From the NCBI GenBank assembly GCA_963664875.1, contig OY761611.1, forward strand, positions 1,184,001-1,248,000: a stretch of 64,000 bases of DNA, given 5' to 3'. A program made the position numbers and the translations under genes. A model generated the notes under the pieces. That model was not told the DNA's origin. It ran no database searches and saw nothing but the letters and a program-made list of their open reading frames with translations. Each line of letters opens with the position of its first letter. Position 1 is the stretch's first letter. Source of the stretch: Candidatus Kapaibacterium sp. (GTDB taxonomy: Bacteria > Bacteroidota > Ignavibacteria > Kapaibacteriales > UBA2268). This document shows positions 16,181-21,354 of this stretch, one piece after another.

Positions 16181-18127
16181 TTAGTCATGTTTTCTTTTAG
16201 CACCGGGCACATTCAACTCTGTGAATAATTTAATAGCCTCTTCGATGTCCATCTTGCCTATATCGCCAACAGTGTGTTCGCGAACAGAAACAGTACCGGA
16301 TTCAATTTCTTTAGCACCAATAATCAGTGCAAATGGAATTTTAGCTTGCTCAGATTCAGCAATCTTACGGTTGACTTTTTCAGCTCTGCCATCATAAACC
16401 GCTCTAAATCCAAGACTTTCCAATCTTTCAGTCAATTCTTTAGCATATTCCTGCTGGTCTCCACCGATAGGAAGCACTGAAATTTGCTCAGGAGCTAACC
16501 AGAATGGGAAATTGCCGGCAGTATGTTCGATAAGAACAGCCACAAATCTTTCCATTGAACCAAAAGGTGCTCTGTGGATCATAATCGGTCTGTGTTTGTT
16601 ATCATCAGCACCGATATATTCCAAATCGAAGCGTTCAGGCAAGTTGTAGTCAACTTGAATAGTACCAAGCTGCCAGCTTCTGCCCAAGGCATCTTTAATC
16701 ATAAAGTCAAGCTTAGGACCATAAAATGCTGCTTCACCAGTCTCAGTTACAGTTTCTAAACCTTTTTCTTCGCAGGCTTCAATGATTGCTCTCTCAGCTT
16801 TTTGCCAGTTCTCTTCGCTTCCGATATATTTCTCTTTGTTATCAGGATCACGAAGTGAAATCTGAGCAGTAAAGTTCTCAAATTGAAGCGCATCAAATAT
16901 GATAAAGATAATATCTATTACTTTTTTGAATTCGTCTTTCAACTGGTCAGAAGTACAGAAAATATGTGCATCATCTTGAGTAAAACTTCTTACACGAGTC
17001 AAACCATGAAGCTCGCCGCTCTGTTCGTATCTATACACAGTACCAAACTCAGCAAATCTTACAGGTAAATCTTTATACGAGCGAGGTCTTGTTTTATAAA
17101 TTTCGCAGTGGTGCGGGCAGTTCATTGGTTTAAGCATGAACTCTTCTCCTTCATAAGGAGTGCTGATTGTTTGATATGAATCCTCAGCATATTTCTGGAA
17201 GTGACCTGATGTTTTGTACAAGTTCACATCTCCAATATGAGGAGTAATCACCTGATCGTAGCCAAATCTTTTTTGTACGGATTTGAGGAATTTTTCTAAC
17301 TGTTCTCTCAAAATTGCACCTTTGGGCAGCCACAAAGGCAAGCCTTGGCCAACACTTTGTGAAAATGCAAATAGGCCGAGCTCTTTGCCGAGACGTCTAT
17401 GGTCTCTTCTTTCAGCTTCTTCGCGTTTTTCTACCCATTCATCCAACATTGCCTGTTTAGGGAATGTTATACCGTAAATACGAGTAAGCATCTGTCTATC
17501 TGAATCTCCACGCCAATAAGCACCTGCAATAGAGTAAAACTTAACAGCTTTAAAGACAGATGTGTTAGGTACGTGTGCCCCTCTACACAAATCAACAAAA
17601 TTACCTTGTTTGTACAATGTAATTTCATCTTCTTTTAGACCTTCCAGCAGTTCAATTTTGTAAGGGTCGCCGACTTTATTAAAATAATCTACAGCATCGT
17701 CCCAAGAAATTTCCATCCTTTCATAATTGGATTTTCTTTTAGCCAATTCTTTAAATTTATTTTCTAACGTTGGTATATCTTCAGAAGAAATTTTGACTCC
17801 TTCAGGCAATTCCATATCGTAATAAAAGCCATTTTCGATTGAAGGACCTATACCAAATTTAGTACCCGGATAAAGCTCAGCAACTGCTTCTGCCATAAGG
17901 TGAGCTGAGGAGTGCCAATATATCTCTTTACCTTCTTCATCATTAAAGGTTACAAAACGAATATTAGCATCTTCATTTATTTTACGAGACAAATCATATT
18001 TTTTATCATTCACAAAACAGCCCAGGGCATTGCGAGCAAGACCTTCAGAAATAGATAGAGCTATCTCCATACCTGTTGTACCGTCAGCATACTCACGCAC
18101 ATTTCCATCAGGAAAAGTAATCTTCAT
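16181..18127 (-). CDS. thrS: Threonine--tRNA ligase
   Basis: TGS domain, [48 protein letters not shown]; ATG at 18127 preferred over the TTG at 18139. Confidence 0.97.
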
Positions 18128-18174
18128 AACGCATTCCAATTCTATATAATAAAATATCTATTGTTATCAATTTA

Positions 18175-18182
18175 CAAATATA
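18175..18182 (-). promoter_or_regulatory. Bacteroidota-type -7 promoter element for thrS
   Basis: Minus strand TATATTTG about 50 nt upstream of the thrS start. Confidence 0.5.
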
Positions 18183-18317
18183 CATAATGTTCCTAAAGAA
18201 CGTTCAAATACTATGTAAATTTTTTTTATTATATTGATTTAGGCAAACGAAAGCACAAAGATAGACTATAAACAATACCTATCAGTCTATTCTTCAAAGC
18301 ACTGGAGAAAGAAACAG

Positions 18318-19235
18318 ATGTACCTAACAGAAAAATATATAAACCCGTTTACGGATTATGGTTTCAAAAAGCTATTTGGTGAAGAGCCTAATAAGGATTT
18401 GCTTAAAGACTTCCTTAGCGAACTTTTGCGTGAAGAGCAGGGAGAAATCAAGGAACTCACTTATTTAAAAAATGAGCATCTTGGTTCGACGGATATGGAC
18501 AGAAAAGCTATTTTTGATCTTTACTGTGAAAATGAAAAAGGTGAAAAATTTATTGTTGAACTCCAAAAAACAAAGCAGAATTTCTTTAAAGACAGAACCG
18601 TTTACTATTCCACCTTCCCTATCACCGAGCAGGCAAAAAGGAATGATTGGAATTTTGAACTAAAGGCGGTTTATACAATTGCAATTTTGGATTTTGTTTT
18701 TGATGAAGACAAAGACCAGCCTGATAAATTCAGATACGATGTGAAGTTATCAGATATAGAAACGCATAAAGTTTTCTACGATAAATTGACATTTATATAT
18801 TTAGAAATGCCTAAATTTAATAAGTCAGTCGATGAGTTAGAAACTCGCTTTGATAAATGGCTTTATGTTTTGAAAAATATGACCAGATTGGACAATATAC
18901 CCGAAAAACTCAGAGAGAAAATATTCCTTAAGCTATTTGAAACAGCTGAGATTGCTCGATTTACTCCGGAACAAGCCAAATCCTACGAAGAAAGTTTGAA
19001 ACATTATCGTGATTTGAAAAATTCTCTCGATACCGCTCATGATGAAGGATATTAGGAAGGTTTTGTTGAGGGAATTGAAGAAGGCAGAAAAGAGGGAATT
19101 GAAGAAGGTAGAAATGAAGCCAATATCAATACCATAAATAAACTTCACAATTCCGGTTTTTCGAAAACTCAAATTGCAGAAATACTTGGATTTGATATTA
19201 GTTATGTAGAAAATATATTATCTAAAGCGAAGTAG
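18318..19235 (+). pseudogene. Rpn family recombination-promoting nuclease / PD-(D/E)XK putative transposase, interrupted by an in-frame TAG at 19053-19055
   Basis: INPFTDYGFKKLFG, IFDLYCENEKGEKFIVELQK, FIYLEMPKF; after the TAG the same frame continues EGFVEGIEEGRKEGIEEGR...IAEILG to a TAG at 19233-19235. Confidence 0.82.
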
Positions 19236-19421
19236 CAATATGTACTTAACAGAAAAAGAAACAACTGATAATGCTATATTTGCTCCTGAACAAGCTAAAT
19301 CCTACGAAGAAAGCTTGAAGCATTACCGTGATTTGAAAAATTCTCTCGATACCGCTCATGAGGAAGGTTTTGTTGAAGGGATTGAAGAAGGTAGAAAAGA
19401 AGGAATTGAAGAGGGCAGAAA
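18960..19421 (+). repeat. Imperfect direct repeat, 18960-19114 vs 19279-19421 (Rpn C-terminal region duplicated)
   Basis: Aligned by eye; copy 1 has one extra 12-nt unit. Confidence 0.9.
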
Positions 19422-19527
19422 AAACACTATACTGTTATTGCATAAATTGGGTTATAAAAAAGAAGATATTGCTATACATACCAAAACTGATATTGATTTC
19501 GTTGATGATGTGCTTTCCAATGAATAG
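19240..19527 (+). CDS. Stand-alone Rpn C-terminal-domain protein (internally deleted duplicate, RpnS-like)
   Basis: Starts MYLTEK like the upstream gene, then continues PEQAKSYEESLKHYRDLKNSLDTAH-EEG repeats and a different HTH-like tail. Confidence 0.75.
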   Translation: MYLTEKETTDNAIFAPEQAKSYEESLKHYRDLKNSLDTAHEEGFVEGIEEGRKEGIEEGRKNTILLLHKLGYKKEDIAIHTKTDIDFVDDVLSNE

Positions 19528-19593
19528 TTTCTATTGTTTGCAACCGTCCACTTCAAAATATCGTAATATAAAAATAAAGAACATAGGAGTAAT

Positions 19594-20217
19594 ATGATGT
19601 ATCTTAGAAAGATTTGGATTGTTTCAGTATTGATTTGCTTGACTTTTATCAGCTGCAATACTTTAAATCAGATAAAACAATCAATGGTAAACTTGAAACG
19701 TTGTGAATTTAGACTGAAAAATGTAAATAATTTTCAGCTTAATAGCATCAACCTTTCCAATAAAAAGTCTATAAATGACTTTTCTATCTCTGATGGACTT
19801 AAACTTACTAACGCTTTTGCAAAGAAATCTTTTCCGGCACATTTTATTTTAAATGTTGAAGCAAATAATCCGAACGACGGTACGGGTGGTACAAAACAAA
19901 GCTCAGCAACACTGACATCATTCGATTGGACACTTTATATTGATGATGTGCCAACAATTTCCGGAAATATAGCTGAACCTATAGTAATTCCCGGAACCGG
20001 CCAATCTGCAATCATACCTTTAGATATTTCCTTAGATTTATATGAGTTTTTCGGCAAGCAAGGCTATGATAGAGTAATTAATTTGGCATTGGCTTTGGGT
20101 GGGGCAAACTCCTCCCCATCGAAGATTACTTTAGATGCACGGCCAACAATAAACACTTCACTAGGTCCTATTTCATACCCCGGAAGAATAAAGATTGTAG
20201 AAAAAACTTGGAAATAA
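19594..20217 (+). CDS. LEA type 2 / WHy-domain lipoprotein
   Basis: Lipobox FISC; LNVEANNPN...LTSFDWTLYIDD...IIPLDISL; AGGAG RBS. Confidence 0.7.
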   Translation: MMYLRKIWIVSVLICLTFISCNTLNQIKQSMVNLKRCEFRLKNVNNFQLNSINLSNKKSINDFSISDGLKLTNAFAKKSFPAHFILNVEANNPNDGTGGTKQSSATLTSFDWTLYIDDVPTISGNIAEPIVIPGTGQSAIIPLDISLDLYEFFGKQGYDRVINLALALGGANSSPSKITLDARPTINTSLGPISYPGRIKIVEKTWK

Positions 20218-20343: not shown

Positions 20344-20384
20344 CCAACAAATCAAACTGATTGTTTTTACTATTTGGTTGTGGT

Positions 20385-20714
20385 ATGAATAATAGCAATT
20401 TTAGAAGAGAACGAATAATTCTAAACGCAATGCAGCTCTTTATGAGTAAAGGTTATTTAGACACTAAGCTTATTGAAATTGCTGAAGTATCCGGAATACC
20501 ACTCTATATTGTGCTTGATCTATTTGAAAATAAATTTGAATTTTTCCAAGAATGTATCAGGTTCGCAAAATCTATAAACAATAGCGTTATTAGTTTTTCT
20601 GTACTTATTGAAGAAAACCGTGAGCTAATAAAAGAGTTTGAAGAAACGTGTAAATGTCAGAAGGAATATATCCATACCGGCTTAAACCCTTTTATACCAA
20701 TTAGTTTTATTTAA
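20385..20714 (+). CDS. Short TetR-like HTH protein
   Basis: RERIILNAMQLFMSKGYLDTKLIEIAEVSGI resembles a TetR N-terminus; ATG at 20385 preferred. Confidence 0.55.
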   Translation: MNNSNFRRERIILNAMQLFMSKGYLDTKLIEIAEVSGIPLYIVLDLFENKFEFFQECIRFAKSINNSVISFSVLIEENRELIKEFEETCKCQKEYIHTGLNPFIPISFI

Positions 20715-20739: not shown

Positions 20740-21354
20740 ATGGAGAATGAACTTGTAACTGAAGAAAAAATTTTACAAGCTGCTATGAAAGTTTTTACAA
20801 GAAAAGGATATACAGGTGCAAGGATGCAGGAAATTGCAGACGAAGCTGAAATAAATAAAGCCTCCTTGCACTATTACTTCAGAAGCAAGCAGCTCCTTTT
20901 TGAGAGAATCTTTCAGTCTGTTCTTACAAAATTTTTAGGTGAAGTAGTCACAAAATTAGACTCCGATTTGTGCATTGATGATAAAATTAGATTCTTTTGC
21001 GAAAATTATATCAATCTAATACAAAAGAATCCGGGGTTCCCGAACTTTATTCTAAACGAATTGCACCAAAATCCTCAATATATTTTCGAACTCTTTAACA
21101 AACAACAGATACAACAGAGAATCAAAAATTTCATGTTCCAATACAAAGAAGAAGTTGCCAAAGGCAATTATAGAGAAATGGATATGAGGCAGTTAATTAC
21201 AAACATTATCTCTTTGAGTATCTTCCCCTTTGCGGCTCGCCCTATCCTACAATTCAATTTAGATTTGTCAAATGATGAATTTTATGAGTTTATGGAAGAT
21301 AGGAAAAAGCATATCCCCGAATTTATACTAAACAGTATCAAAATAAATAAATAG
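20740..21354 (+). CDS. TetR/AcrR family transcriptional regulator
   Basis: EEKILQAAMKVFTRKGYTGARMQEIADEAEINKASLHYYFRSK. Confidence 0.92.
   Translation: MENELVTEEKILQAAMKVFTRKGYTGARMQEIADEAEINKASLHYYFRSKQLLFERIFQSVLTKFLGEVVTKLDSDLCIDDKIRFFCENYINLIQKNPGFPNFILNELHQNPQYIFELFNKQQIQQRIKNFMFQYKEEVAKGNYREMDMRQLITNIISLSIFPFAARPILQFNLDLSNDEFYEFMEDRKKHIPEFILNSIKINK

Follow-up and report, generated by a model that had tools for sequence, protein, structure and literature searches.

A candidate stand-alone gene for an Rpn nuclease's C-terminal domain, immediately following an rpn gene in Candidatus Kapaibacterium

Rpn nucleases are part of a recently recognised form of phage defence of the toxin-antitoxin type, in which the toxin's own tail domain serves as antitoxin. 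In Escherichia coli, the small protein RpnS binds the full-length protein RpnL, blocks cleavage by it, and dimerises via the helix that bears a repeat of four residues. The coding sequence of RpnS may lie inside rpn or be present "as a separate gene" (Zhong et al. 2023, PNAS, PMC10400941). Separate downstream genes of this kind (rpnSs) include ypaA/rpnESs, rpnCSs, rpnFSs, and rpnP1Ss, and the RpnESs protein has been detected. The same authors inferred independent origins of rpnSs from the neighbouring gene, and noted its loss by fusion of the N-domain to the rpnSs region. Here we analyse a 64,000-nt stretch of a Candidatus Kapaibacterium sp. genome (GCA_963664875.1, contig OY761611.1, positions 1,184,001 to 1,248,000; hereafter the window), in which an open reading frame (ORF) of 95 codons directly follows an rpn gene. 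The first-pass annotation suggested that this ORF might be an externalised RpnS-type antitoxin. A stand-alone copy of the C-terminal domain is indeed what we find, but the idea of an externalised RpnS was already in Zhong et al. 2023.

We take the 95-codon ORF to be a genuine rpnSs-type small gene, that is, a separately encoded Rpn C-terminal domain placed directly after an rpn gene, and we put the probability of this at roughly 0.6. The frame upstream is supported as an Rpn-family nuclease gene by its family matches. It matches PF12784 (PDDEXK_2) across residues 10-240 (E = 1.6e-77, 260.8 bits against a cut-off of 27.4) and the NCBIfam model TIGR01784, titled [quoted passage not shown] (E = 3.5e-34, 118.9 bits against a cut-off of 52.1); COG5464 is the same family. 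Its translation includes a D..(E)xK-like motif (IFDL..IVELQK), which by comparison with the PD-(D/E)XK superfamily would be catalytic. The short ORF begins 4 nt after this frame ends, on the same strand. Both proteins start with MYLTEK. Residues 7-207 of the long protein are then missing from the short one, which resumes at long residue 208 (ETAEIARFT in the long protein, ETTDNAIFA in the short one). The 44 codons that align cleanly encode the same residues in both genes. The long copy has 12 nt more than the short one, which correspond to one more unit of the 4-residue repeat (6 versus 5). The tails are dissimilar (NEANINTINKLHNSGF.. in the long protein, KNTILLLHKLGYKK... in the short one). 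The spacing, the common start, the missing residues, and the unlike tails are as the first-pass annotation described them. The short ORF also matches positions 196-262 of TIGR01784 (E = 3.7e-5, below the cut-off of that model), and over query residues 3-94 it is 58-68% identical to the C-terminal parts of the five long paralogs.

These paralogs are all in the same genome, which is a single contig of 3.83 Mb. Five genes match PF12784: one is in the window, and four are in a head-to-tail array with the order A-A'-B-C-D. The unit A' is itself a short gene. It has the same junction as the short ORF in the window (MYLTEK joined to ETAEIARF..), and the two are 90% identical over residues 1-61 of the short ORF. 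An origin by duplication and deletion, as had been proposed, is supported, the deletion being internal and in frame. Three of the four array junctions read GCGAAGTAG-TAAT-ATGTAC, and the junction in the window is of the same type, with CAAT; the array spacers are 3-4 nt long, and the junction from A to A' is TAGTAAATG, with a 3-nt spacer. The units A, A', B, C, and D have 9, 8, 4, 5, and 4 repeats, and each copy is a distinct combination of repeat number and tail. The number of repeats also varies between strains: the short gene has 5 in the window and 3 in an allele from another sample (P0003), and the copies in this genome range from 4 to 9. Copy D is 99% identical to the long frame in the window and has the same tail, which we call T2. 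(In alignment columns 821-948, the T2 of the long frame has 3 nucleotide differences to D, versus 49-52 to A, B, and C.) The tail of the short ORF, T3, has no other copy in this genome.

The five long copies are mosaics. The copy nearest to the long frame is D in alignment columns 101-200, A in columns 401-500, B in columns 601-735, and D again in the tail, and all four gametes are present in 521 of 2,145 informative pairs of sites. Judging from these patterns, the paralogs demonstrably exchange sequence.

Table 1. Features of the rpn pair, its left neighbour, and the second rpn locus. Positions are those of the window, except for the array, which is given in genome coordinates.
Feature	Position	Strand	Description
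thrS (threonyl-tRNA synthetase)	16181..18139	-	Conserved left neighbour that anchors the locus; Pfam; colinear with the congener G004
Long rpn frame	18318..19235	+	305 codons; Rpn-family PD-(D/E)XK nuclease, C-terminal repeat helix, and tail type T2
Direct repeat arm 1	18939..19096	+	158 nt, 81% identical to arm 2; spacing 319 nt
4-residue repeat region, long frame	19041..19112	+	Residues 242-265, 6 units (EGxx); contains the TAG
Nonsense codon TAG	19053-19055	+	Codon 246, in the second unit of the 4-residue repeat; the product loses the whole C-terminal domain
Tail T2 of the long frame (NEANINTINKLHNSGFSKTQ..)	19113..19232	+	Helix-turn-helix-like; common to array copy D
4-nt spacer CAAT	19236..19239	+	Unit junction of the tandem array (GCGAAG-TAG-YAAT-ATGTAC)
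Short gene (putative stand-alone Rpn C-terminal-domain gene, rpnSs-like)	19240..19527	+	95 codons
Stub MYLTEK	19240..19257	+	First six codons of the rpn gene; start codon and start context of the array units
Direct repeat arm 2	19258..19415	+	Partner of arm 1
Nine-codon patch ETTDNAIFA	19258..19284	+	ETAEIARFT in every other copy; 6 private nucleotide changes, which alter the residue in 5 codons
25-codon block PEQAKSYEESLKHYRDLKNSLDTAH	19285..19359	+	Start of the long helix; identical residues in all full-length copies, including that of the congener G004
4-residue repeat region, short gene	19360..19419	+	Residues 41-60, 5 units; 3 units in allele P0003
Tail T3 (KNTILLLHKLGYKKEDIAIHTKTDIDFVDDVLSNE)	19420..19524	+	Ancestral tail of the thrS-adjacent rpn locus
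Array A-A'-B-C-D, head-to-tail	G000:C1:3458003-3461950	-	A 313, A' 108, B 293, C 297, D 295 amino acids

We then asked whether the short ORF is maintained. The first-pass annotation had argued for selective maintenance from 11 nucleotide differences, all synonymous, in the 44 aligned codons. The count is right (5 differences in the 25 codons of PEQ..TAH and 6 in the 19 codons of EGF..EGR), and given that the synonymous-site fraction of these codons is 0.197, 11 of 11 would arise at random with P of about 1.7e-8. But this argument loses force on closer inspection. Other paralogs carry six of the 11 variants (in the first block 4 of 5, in the second 2 of 6); five of these paralogs are full-length and exchange sequence, and the 25-residue block is unchanged in all full-length copies, including that of the congener G004, despite 12-18 synonymous differences. 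The argument is therefore confounded.

Nevertheless, four other lines of evidence suggest that the short ORF is probably maintained rather than decaying. First, the changes that are private to the short ORF are of different kinds in different parts of it. The nine-codon patch after the stub has 6 private nucleotide changes in 5 codons, all of them residue-changing. The next 26 codons have 1 private change, which is synonymous. Of the 6 differences in the 19 repeat codons, 4 are private, and these too are all synonymous. (Across the 44 codons after the patch, this gives five private synonymous changes.) Second, the allele P0003, which is on a 901-nt contig from another sample, is intact (87 amino acids) and has the same stub. 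Its tail is identical to that of the short ORF at 35 of 35 residues and its helix block at 25 of 26, and it has 3 repeat units instead of 5. In the patch, 6 of 9 residues differ (P0003 reads VSTEIARFT; Fisher P = 2.6e-6 for the uneven spread). Because the genome has no T3 donor, conversion cannot explain the conservation of this tail. Third, we computed the ratio of nonsynonymous to synonymous substitution rates (dN/dS), as had been proposed. It is about 0.2 between short genes (0.21 for the window's gene and A', over 94 codons, and 0.18 for the short gene of G091 and its syntenic ortholog in G089, over 69 codons) and 0.10 between the long genes of G091 and G089.

Fourth, the build recurs. A search for the same arrangement, which the first-pass annotation had proposed for relatives, found long-plus-short pairs in G003, G089, and G091. 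The pair in G003, which is in the same genus, is at the array locus and has another junction. Besides the pairs in G089 and G091, there are solitary short genes in G028 and G089, and the junctions differ. A database search with the solitary gene of G089 returned 176 proteins of 52-167 amino acids at E <= 1e-5. Among the 120 short homologues listed, at least 48 carry, as judged by two motif patterns, an rpn stub at the N-terminus followed by the C-domain, with many different junctions, and some of these stub-type proteins are encoded on contigs of 0.1-5.8 Mb. The short open frames of G070, G149, and G026 (3 of 6 fetched) turned out to be fragments at contig ends rather than short genes. Many of the short homologues carry a precomputed Pfam accession, PF27070.1. 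This may be a recent family for the C-terminal domain, which would bear on how well known these genes are. A metagenome scan with the short protein found 54 loci, with 44% identity at best, and no closer allele of the gene with the T3 tail; of 7 loci that were opened, 6 had a covering ORF, and all 6 were full-length rpn genes.

The long frame in the window is not intact: it has an in-frame TAG at codon 246, ahead of its terminal stop (also TAG, at 19233-19235). At this site, array copy D and the allele P0005 read DEGYEEG, with a glutamate, versus DEGY-stop-EG in the window. (P0005 is a fragment from another sample that carries a T2 allele of the window's type.) We therefore consider the TAG to be a strain-level nonsense mutation. 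Going by the title of SI Fig. S4 in Zhong et al. 2023 (PMC10400941), the activity of RpnL requires the C-terminal domain, so by analogy the 245-residue product of the long frame is probably inactive. An alternative genetic code for TAG is ruled out because every rpn unit of the arrays ends in TAG, and a restart after the TAG is ruled out as there is no in-frame ATG, GTG, or TTG ahead of the tail.

We also considered whether the arrangement could be an artefact of collapsed or mis-joined rpn repeats, with the TAG as a consensus error. The genome has five near-identical paralogs, and contigs from short reads end inside the repeats, both of which fit an artefact. We compared the window to Logan contigs of three runs (X1, X2, and X3) from two studies; the runs may include the genome's own sample, so they are not fully independent of it. 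The stop-to-start junction is bridged with 0 differences (19190-19326 in X1 and X2, 19190-19356 in X3), and the unique flanks on both sides (18150-18347 and 19332-19650) are also matched with 0 differences. The join of the long and short genes is thus not a misassembly. Also, the stub and the T3 tail recur in P0003, whose contig is independent. At the nonsense codon itself the runs differ. In run X2, all contigs over position 19053 show G (44.6 of 44.6 in depth), as expected if the TAG were an error. But contigs with G at this position derive from paralogs, and the depth beyond G is 5.1 in X1 and 17.9 in X3, compared to 3.3-4.8 and 17.8-18.7 in single-copy flanks. Because these depths agree, the T of the TAG is probably real in X1 and X3, and we give almost no credence to an artefact.

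The same contigs held some variants of the locus. At window positions 18330-18379, contigs of X1-X3, which are isolate-like runs, show an extra junction derived from rpn, in which ..YGFKKLF continues into diverged ..EMPKFNKSID.. sequence. Two loose-end strings of this junction are absent from the genome, so the runs are not identical to the genome or else hold an extra locus. In X7, which is a run from a wastewater metagenome and represents a related population, one contig joins 19246 to 18325, that is, from the start of a unit straight to a full-length unit (long then long). This indicates that the content of the array at the unit junction varies between populations.

What would the short protein do? 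By analogy to E. coli RpnS, it is most likely an inhibitor of full-length Rpn paralogs, which would make it an antitoxin. The gene would be translated from its array-type start and transcribed with the gene upstream, as the common junction suggests. The protein would fold as a long helix with the 4-residue repeats followed by a small bundle that resembles a helix-turn-helix (HTH), and its helix would pair with the same helix of a full-length Rpn and block the nuclease. Since the neighbouring frame is truncated before its C-domain, any partner must be one of the four intact paralogs in the array. Copy C has 5 repeat units, as does the short gene.

We examined this proposal by structure prediction. 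In a low-confidence AlphaFold2 model of the short protein, residues 16-69, 74-81, and 85-93 are helical; the mean predicted local distance difference test (pLDDT) score is 62, with values above 80 in the tail. Among 48,161 PDB representatives, the top match to the model is 7th0_A, which is RpnA-S from E. coli (Z = 5.3, root-mean-square deviation 2.0 Å, 46 of 46 residues), tied with HTH domains (Z = 5.0-5.2). A sequence search of the PDB found nothing at E <= 1, and the sole match up to E = 10 was an unrelated dehydrogenase (E = 1.4). We also predicted a complex in which the short protein pairs with copy C residues 205-297. The scores were 0.50, 0.50, and 0.48, versus 0.02 for the best control, which is graded as "weak support"; between runs, at least 96% of contacts agree, with a partner pLDDT of at least 77. 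When the tool was calibrated, its mark was reached by 51 of 78 solved complexes and by 2 of 108 mismatched pairs, but with a score of 0.60 or below it was reached by only 5 of those 78 complexes, and by all 4 mismatches that passed (of 180). A caveat is that a similar complex has been solved (7TH0), so the pass may only reflect likeness to it.

Another explanation is that the short protein is mainly a DNA-binding regulator that acts through its HTH-like tail, for example as a repressor of rpn operons. The tied matches at Z = 5.0-5.2 are to resolvase, TrpR-like, and DeoR HTH folds. There are also faint hits to HTH_7 in the short ORF (E = 0.097), A' (E = 0.0029), and the tail of the long frame (E = 0.0044), all of them below the Pfam cut-off, and many type II antitoxins are autorepressors as well. 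But no HTH family reaches its curated cut-off, and it is the helix that is conserved, while the tail is the most variable part among the copies. Also, E. coli RpnS binds RpnL and blocks cleavage in vitro with no need to bind DNA (Zhong et al. 2023, PMC10400941). We consider a mainly regulatory role to be improbable.

Several observations weigh against our reading of the ORF as a real rpnSs-type gene. First, because the paralogs exchange sequence, as the four-gamete pairs and the shifting nearest copy indicate, the low dN/dS could be borrowed from the full-length genes. Second, A' has a tyrosine-to-serine change in the otherwise invariant block, and in G089 the 3' end of the syntenic short gene is decayed. 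Third, G004, a congener, lacks any short gene although it has a long one, which means that an rpn gene can be carried without a separate short gene. Fourth, the count of in-frame stubs is biased, as out-of-frame deletions would not be seen as stub-plus-domain proteins in a protein database. Fifth, the repeats do not follow the E. coli pattern. In RpnC, RpnS blocks RpnL only if the repeat numbers match (Zhong et al. 2023, PMC10400941), and in this genome each of the two short genes falls exactly one unit below its upstream long gene (5 versus 6 in the window, and 8 in A' versus 9 in A). (The ypaA gene of K-12 is also one unit off rpnE, despite the matching rule for RpnC.) The repeats of described RpnS proteins begin 8-20 residues past the start methionine (PMC10400941), not at residue 41-42 as in the short protein. 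Sixth, RpnS is annotated as DUF4351 (PF14261) in some species (PMC10400941), and the short ORF has no match to PF14261 at E <= 1. Nor do A', P0003, the short gene of G003, P0021, P0085, or P0098 at E <= 0.1. PF14261 does not define the rpnSs group, however, as YpaA from E. coli has no match at E <= 0.01. Finally, a Foldseek search of the PDB with the model found nothing at E <= 0.001, and no RNA run among the sequencing runs listed contains the stretch of the short gene.

Some of these observations would be expected if the short ORF were a non-functional by-product of array dynamics. A single conversion could have pushed the resident tail behind the array junction, leaving an ORF that stays open by chance and through conversion from functional paralogs, which would keep refreshing its conserved block. 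The mosaic structure and the clear exchange between copies fit this explanation, as do the six synonymous differences that are common to other copies, the broken long gene next door, the unequal repeat numbers, the decay in G089, and the change in A'. Even E. coli ypaA is annotated as a pseudogene in RefSeq. But a by-product would not account for T3, which has no donor in the genome and is still identical in P0003 while most of the patch differs, or for the five private changes in the helix and repeat blocks being all synonymous next to a patch with 6 changes in 5 residue-changing codons. Furthermore, one group of short genes (P0021, P0022, P0023, P0029, and P0030) retains a single junction across species, at 62-82% identity, and the many independent junctions all keep the frame and the whole C-domain. 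We therefore view a by-product as unlikely, while taking it seriously, and we prefer a maintained rpnSs-type gene.

We then examined how the pair arose. In the congener G004, the same position next to thrS is occupied by a single full-length gene (305 amino acids). The window is colinear with G004 over 17800-19052, with 81.6% nucleotide identity. The tail of the G004 protein (KKNTIKLLHSLGYNISDIAAHT..) is 61% identical to the tail of the short ORF (tblastx, 31 residues) and 33% identical to that of the long frame. The tail of the short ORF had been proposed to provide a new specificity, but because T3 is kept in the single gene of G004, it is the old tail of this locus instead. T2 resembles tails at the other locus in the congeners G002 and G003. 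The comparison shows that a unit in a tandem array underwent in-frame loss of codons 7-207, keeping its start codon, its first six codons, and the 4-nt junction, and that exchange between the two rpn loci of this genome then made the present mosaic. In our reading, a piece of the array (T2 tail, junction, and the 5' part of a stub-type short gene) would have been copied into the resident gene, so that the resident T3 tail was left behind the 5' part of the short gene. The left part of the mosaic would then be the resident gene of the thrS locus, now with the T2 tail from the second locus and the array junction. An origin of the pair in situ is conceivable as an alternative path. The short block is not a recent copy of paralog C, as its 25 codons differ by 4-8 nt from those of each of the other copies.

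The segment after the stub, which is ETAEIAKF in the long genes, has been remodelled in a similar way in unrelated short proteins (P0094, P0105, P0090, and P0109): it is ETTDNAIFA here and ETTDIEDYA or ETTDKGNFT elsewhere. This may be a parallel adaptation of a surface that is freed from packing against the nuclease domain, or it may form a new helix cap. More broadly, stub-type small Rpn genes may be a distinct and widespread class in Bacteroidota, formed by repeated in-frame loss of the nuclease core with retention of the parent's start, and followed by parallel remodelling of the segment that used to belong to the nuclease. The long/short pairs might also switch tails by recombination. If the two 158-nt direct repeats crossed over, the nuclease domain would become joined to the stored T3 while T2 would be lost, and the short gene would be both an antitoxin and a silent cassette that re-programs toxin-antitoxin specificity. 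We saw no tail switching via these repeats in the run contigs, which cannot show rare forms. We regard this combined proposal of a class and a switch as a long shot. In the literature, we did not find stub-type small rpn genes beyond Zhong et al. 2023, Koonin's commentary (PMC10400984), and Kingston 2017, and Dataset S1 of Zhong et al. may list stand-alone RpnS from Bacteroidota.

The surroundings of the pair are not a defence island: the neighbours are thrS, MotA/MotB-like proteins, a response regulator, a TetR regulator, and efflux and ABC transport genes (Pfam), and PADLOC gave only chance-level matches to unrelated models (E = 0.0008-0.008). Searches for signals of transcription were uninformative. 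There are 11 sigma-70-type sites, versus 7.0 +/- 2.6 expected, and one terminator-like site, on the wrong strand. The motif TANNTTTG, which we take to be the consensus of the Bacteroidetes -7 promoter element, has 99 matches in the window versus 85 +/- 9 expected, and none on the + strand at 18140-18318. The changes in the nine-codon patch create TATATTTG within the short ORF (19275-19282, + strand), which matches this motif. Further downstream, a 117-codon ORF with no Pfam match (20361-20714, + strand) directly precedes a 204-codon TetR-family regulator (20740-21354, + strand) and an operon for efflux/ABC transport. Since the N-terminus of its product resembles the HTH of TetR, the ORF may be a truncated duplicate.

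The concept of a separately encoded RpnS has already been published (Zhong et al. 2023), so the gain here is incremental. What this locus adds is a separately encoded form outside the enterobacteria, in another Pfam family of N-domains (PF12784), and another route to such a gene, namely in-frame deletion of an array unit that keeps the start of its parent, a route that recurs many times. In NCBI, relatives at family level are named Candidatus Kapabacteria. The recurrence of stubs in Bacteroidota, the parallel remodelling after the stub, and the possible tail switch may be of some interest. The genome also offers a natural set of four intact long genes and two short genes, each with a distinct combination of repeat number and tail, which could be used to test the matching of antitoxins to toxins.

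The closest described system is rpnE-ypaA of E. coli. In K-12, ypaA lies 12 nt after rpnE, and its product is 75% identical (46/61) to residues 244-299 of RpnE, with a difference of one 4-residue unit. (RefSeq calls ypaA a pseudogene (NC_000913, L097 7817-8002), although Zhong et al. 2023 detected the tagged protein.) In both systems, a small ORF on the same strand directly follows an rpn gene (with a gap of 12 nt in K-12 versus 4 nt here), it duplicates the C-terminal domain, including a variable 4-residue repeat, and it is one unit off its neighbour (YpaA has one more, and the window's short gene has one fewer). Unlike YpaA, which is 61 amino acids long, starts from an internal methionine (RpnE 244), and has no stub, the window's gene keeps the first six codons and 34 residues before the repeats. 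This indicates that a whole unit gave rise to it through an internal deletion in frame. The N-domain is PF12784 here versus PF04754 in RpnE. Also unlike rpnE-ypaA, the window's short gene ends in the ancestral resident gene's tail and not in its neighbour's, and the neighbour has a nonsense mutation.

Compared to the RpnAS protein of E. coli (PDB 7TH0), the short protein has, in its low-confidence model, a similar long first helix with 4-residue repeats, followed by two short helices, and its repeat number likewise varies between strains. It differs in that no sequence similarity to E. coli RpnS was detected (PDB search, E <= 1). The gene is separate, unlike intragenic RpnS, and the long paralogs have no in-frame methionine 8-20 residues ahead of the repeats. 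Finally, the loci in this genome resemble an array from Parabacteroides (SI Fig. S1B, PMC10400941), whose head-to-tail units arose by tandem direct duplication, without target-site duplications. The legend of that figure does not mention internally deleted units, whereas here each of the two loci has one stub-type unit, and the pair in the window has the same unit junction as the genome's five-unit array.

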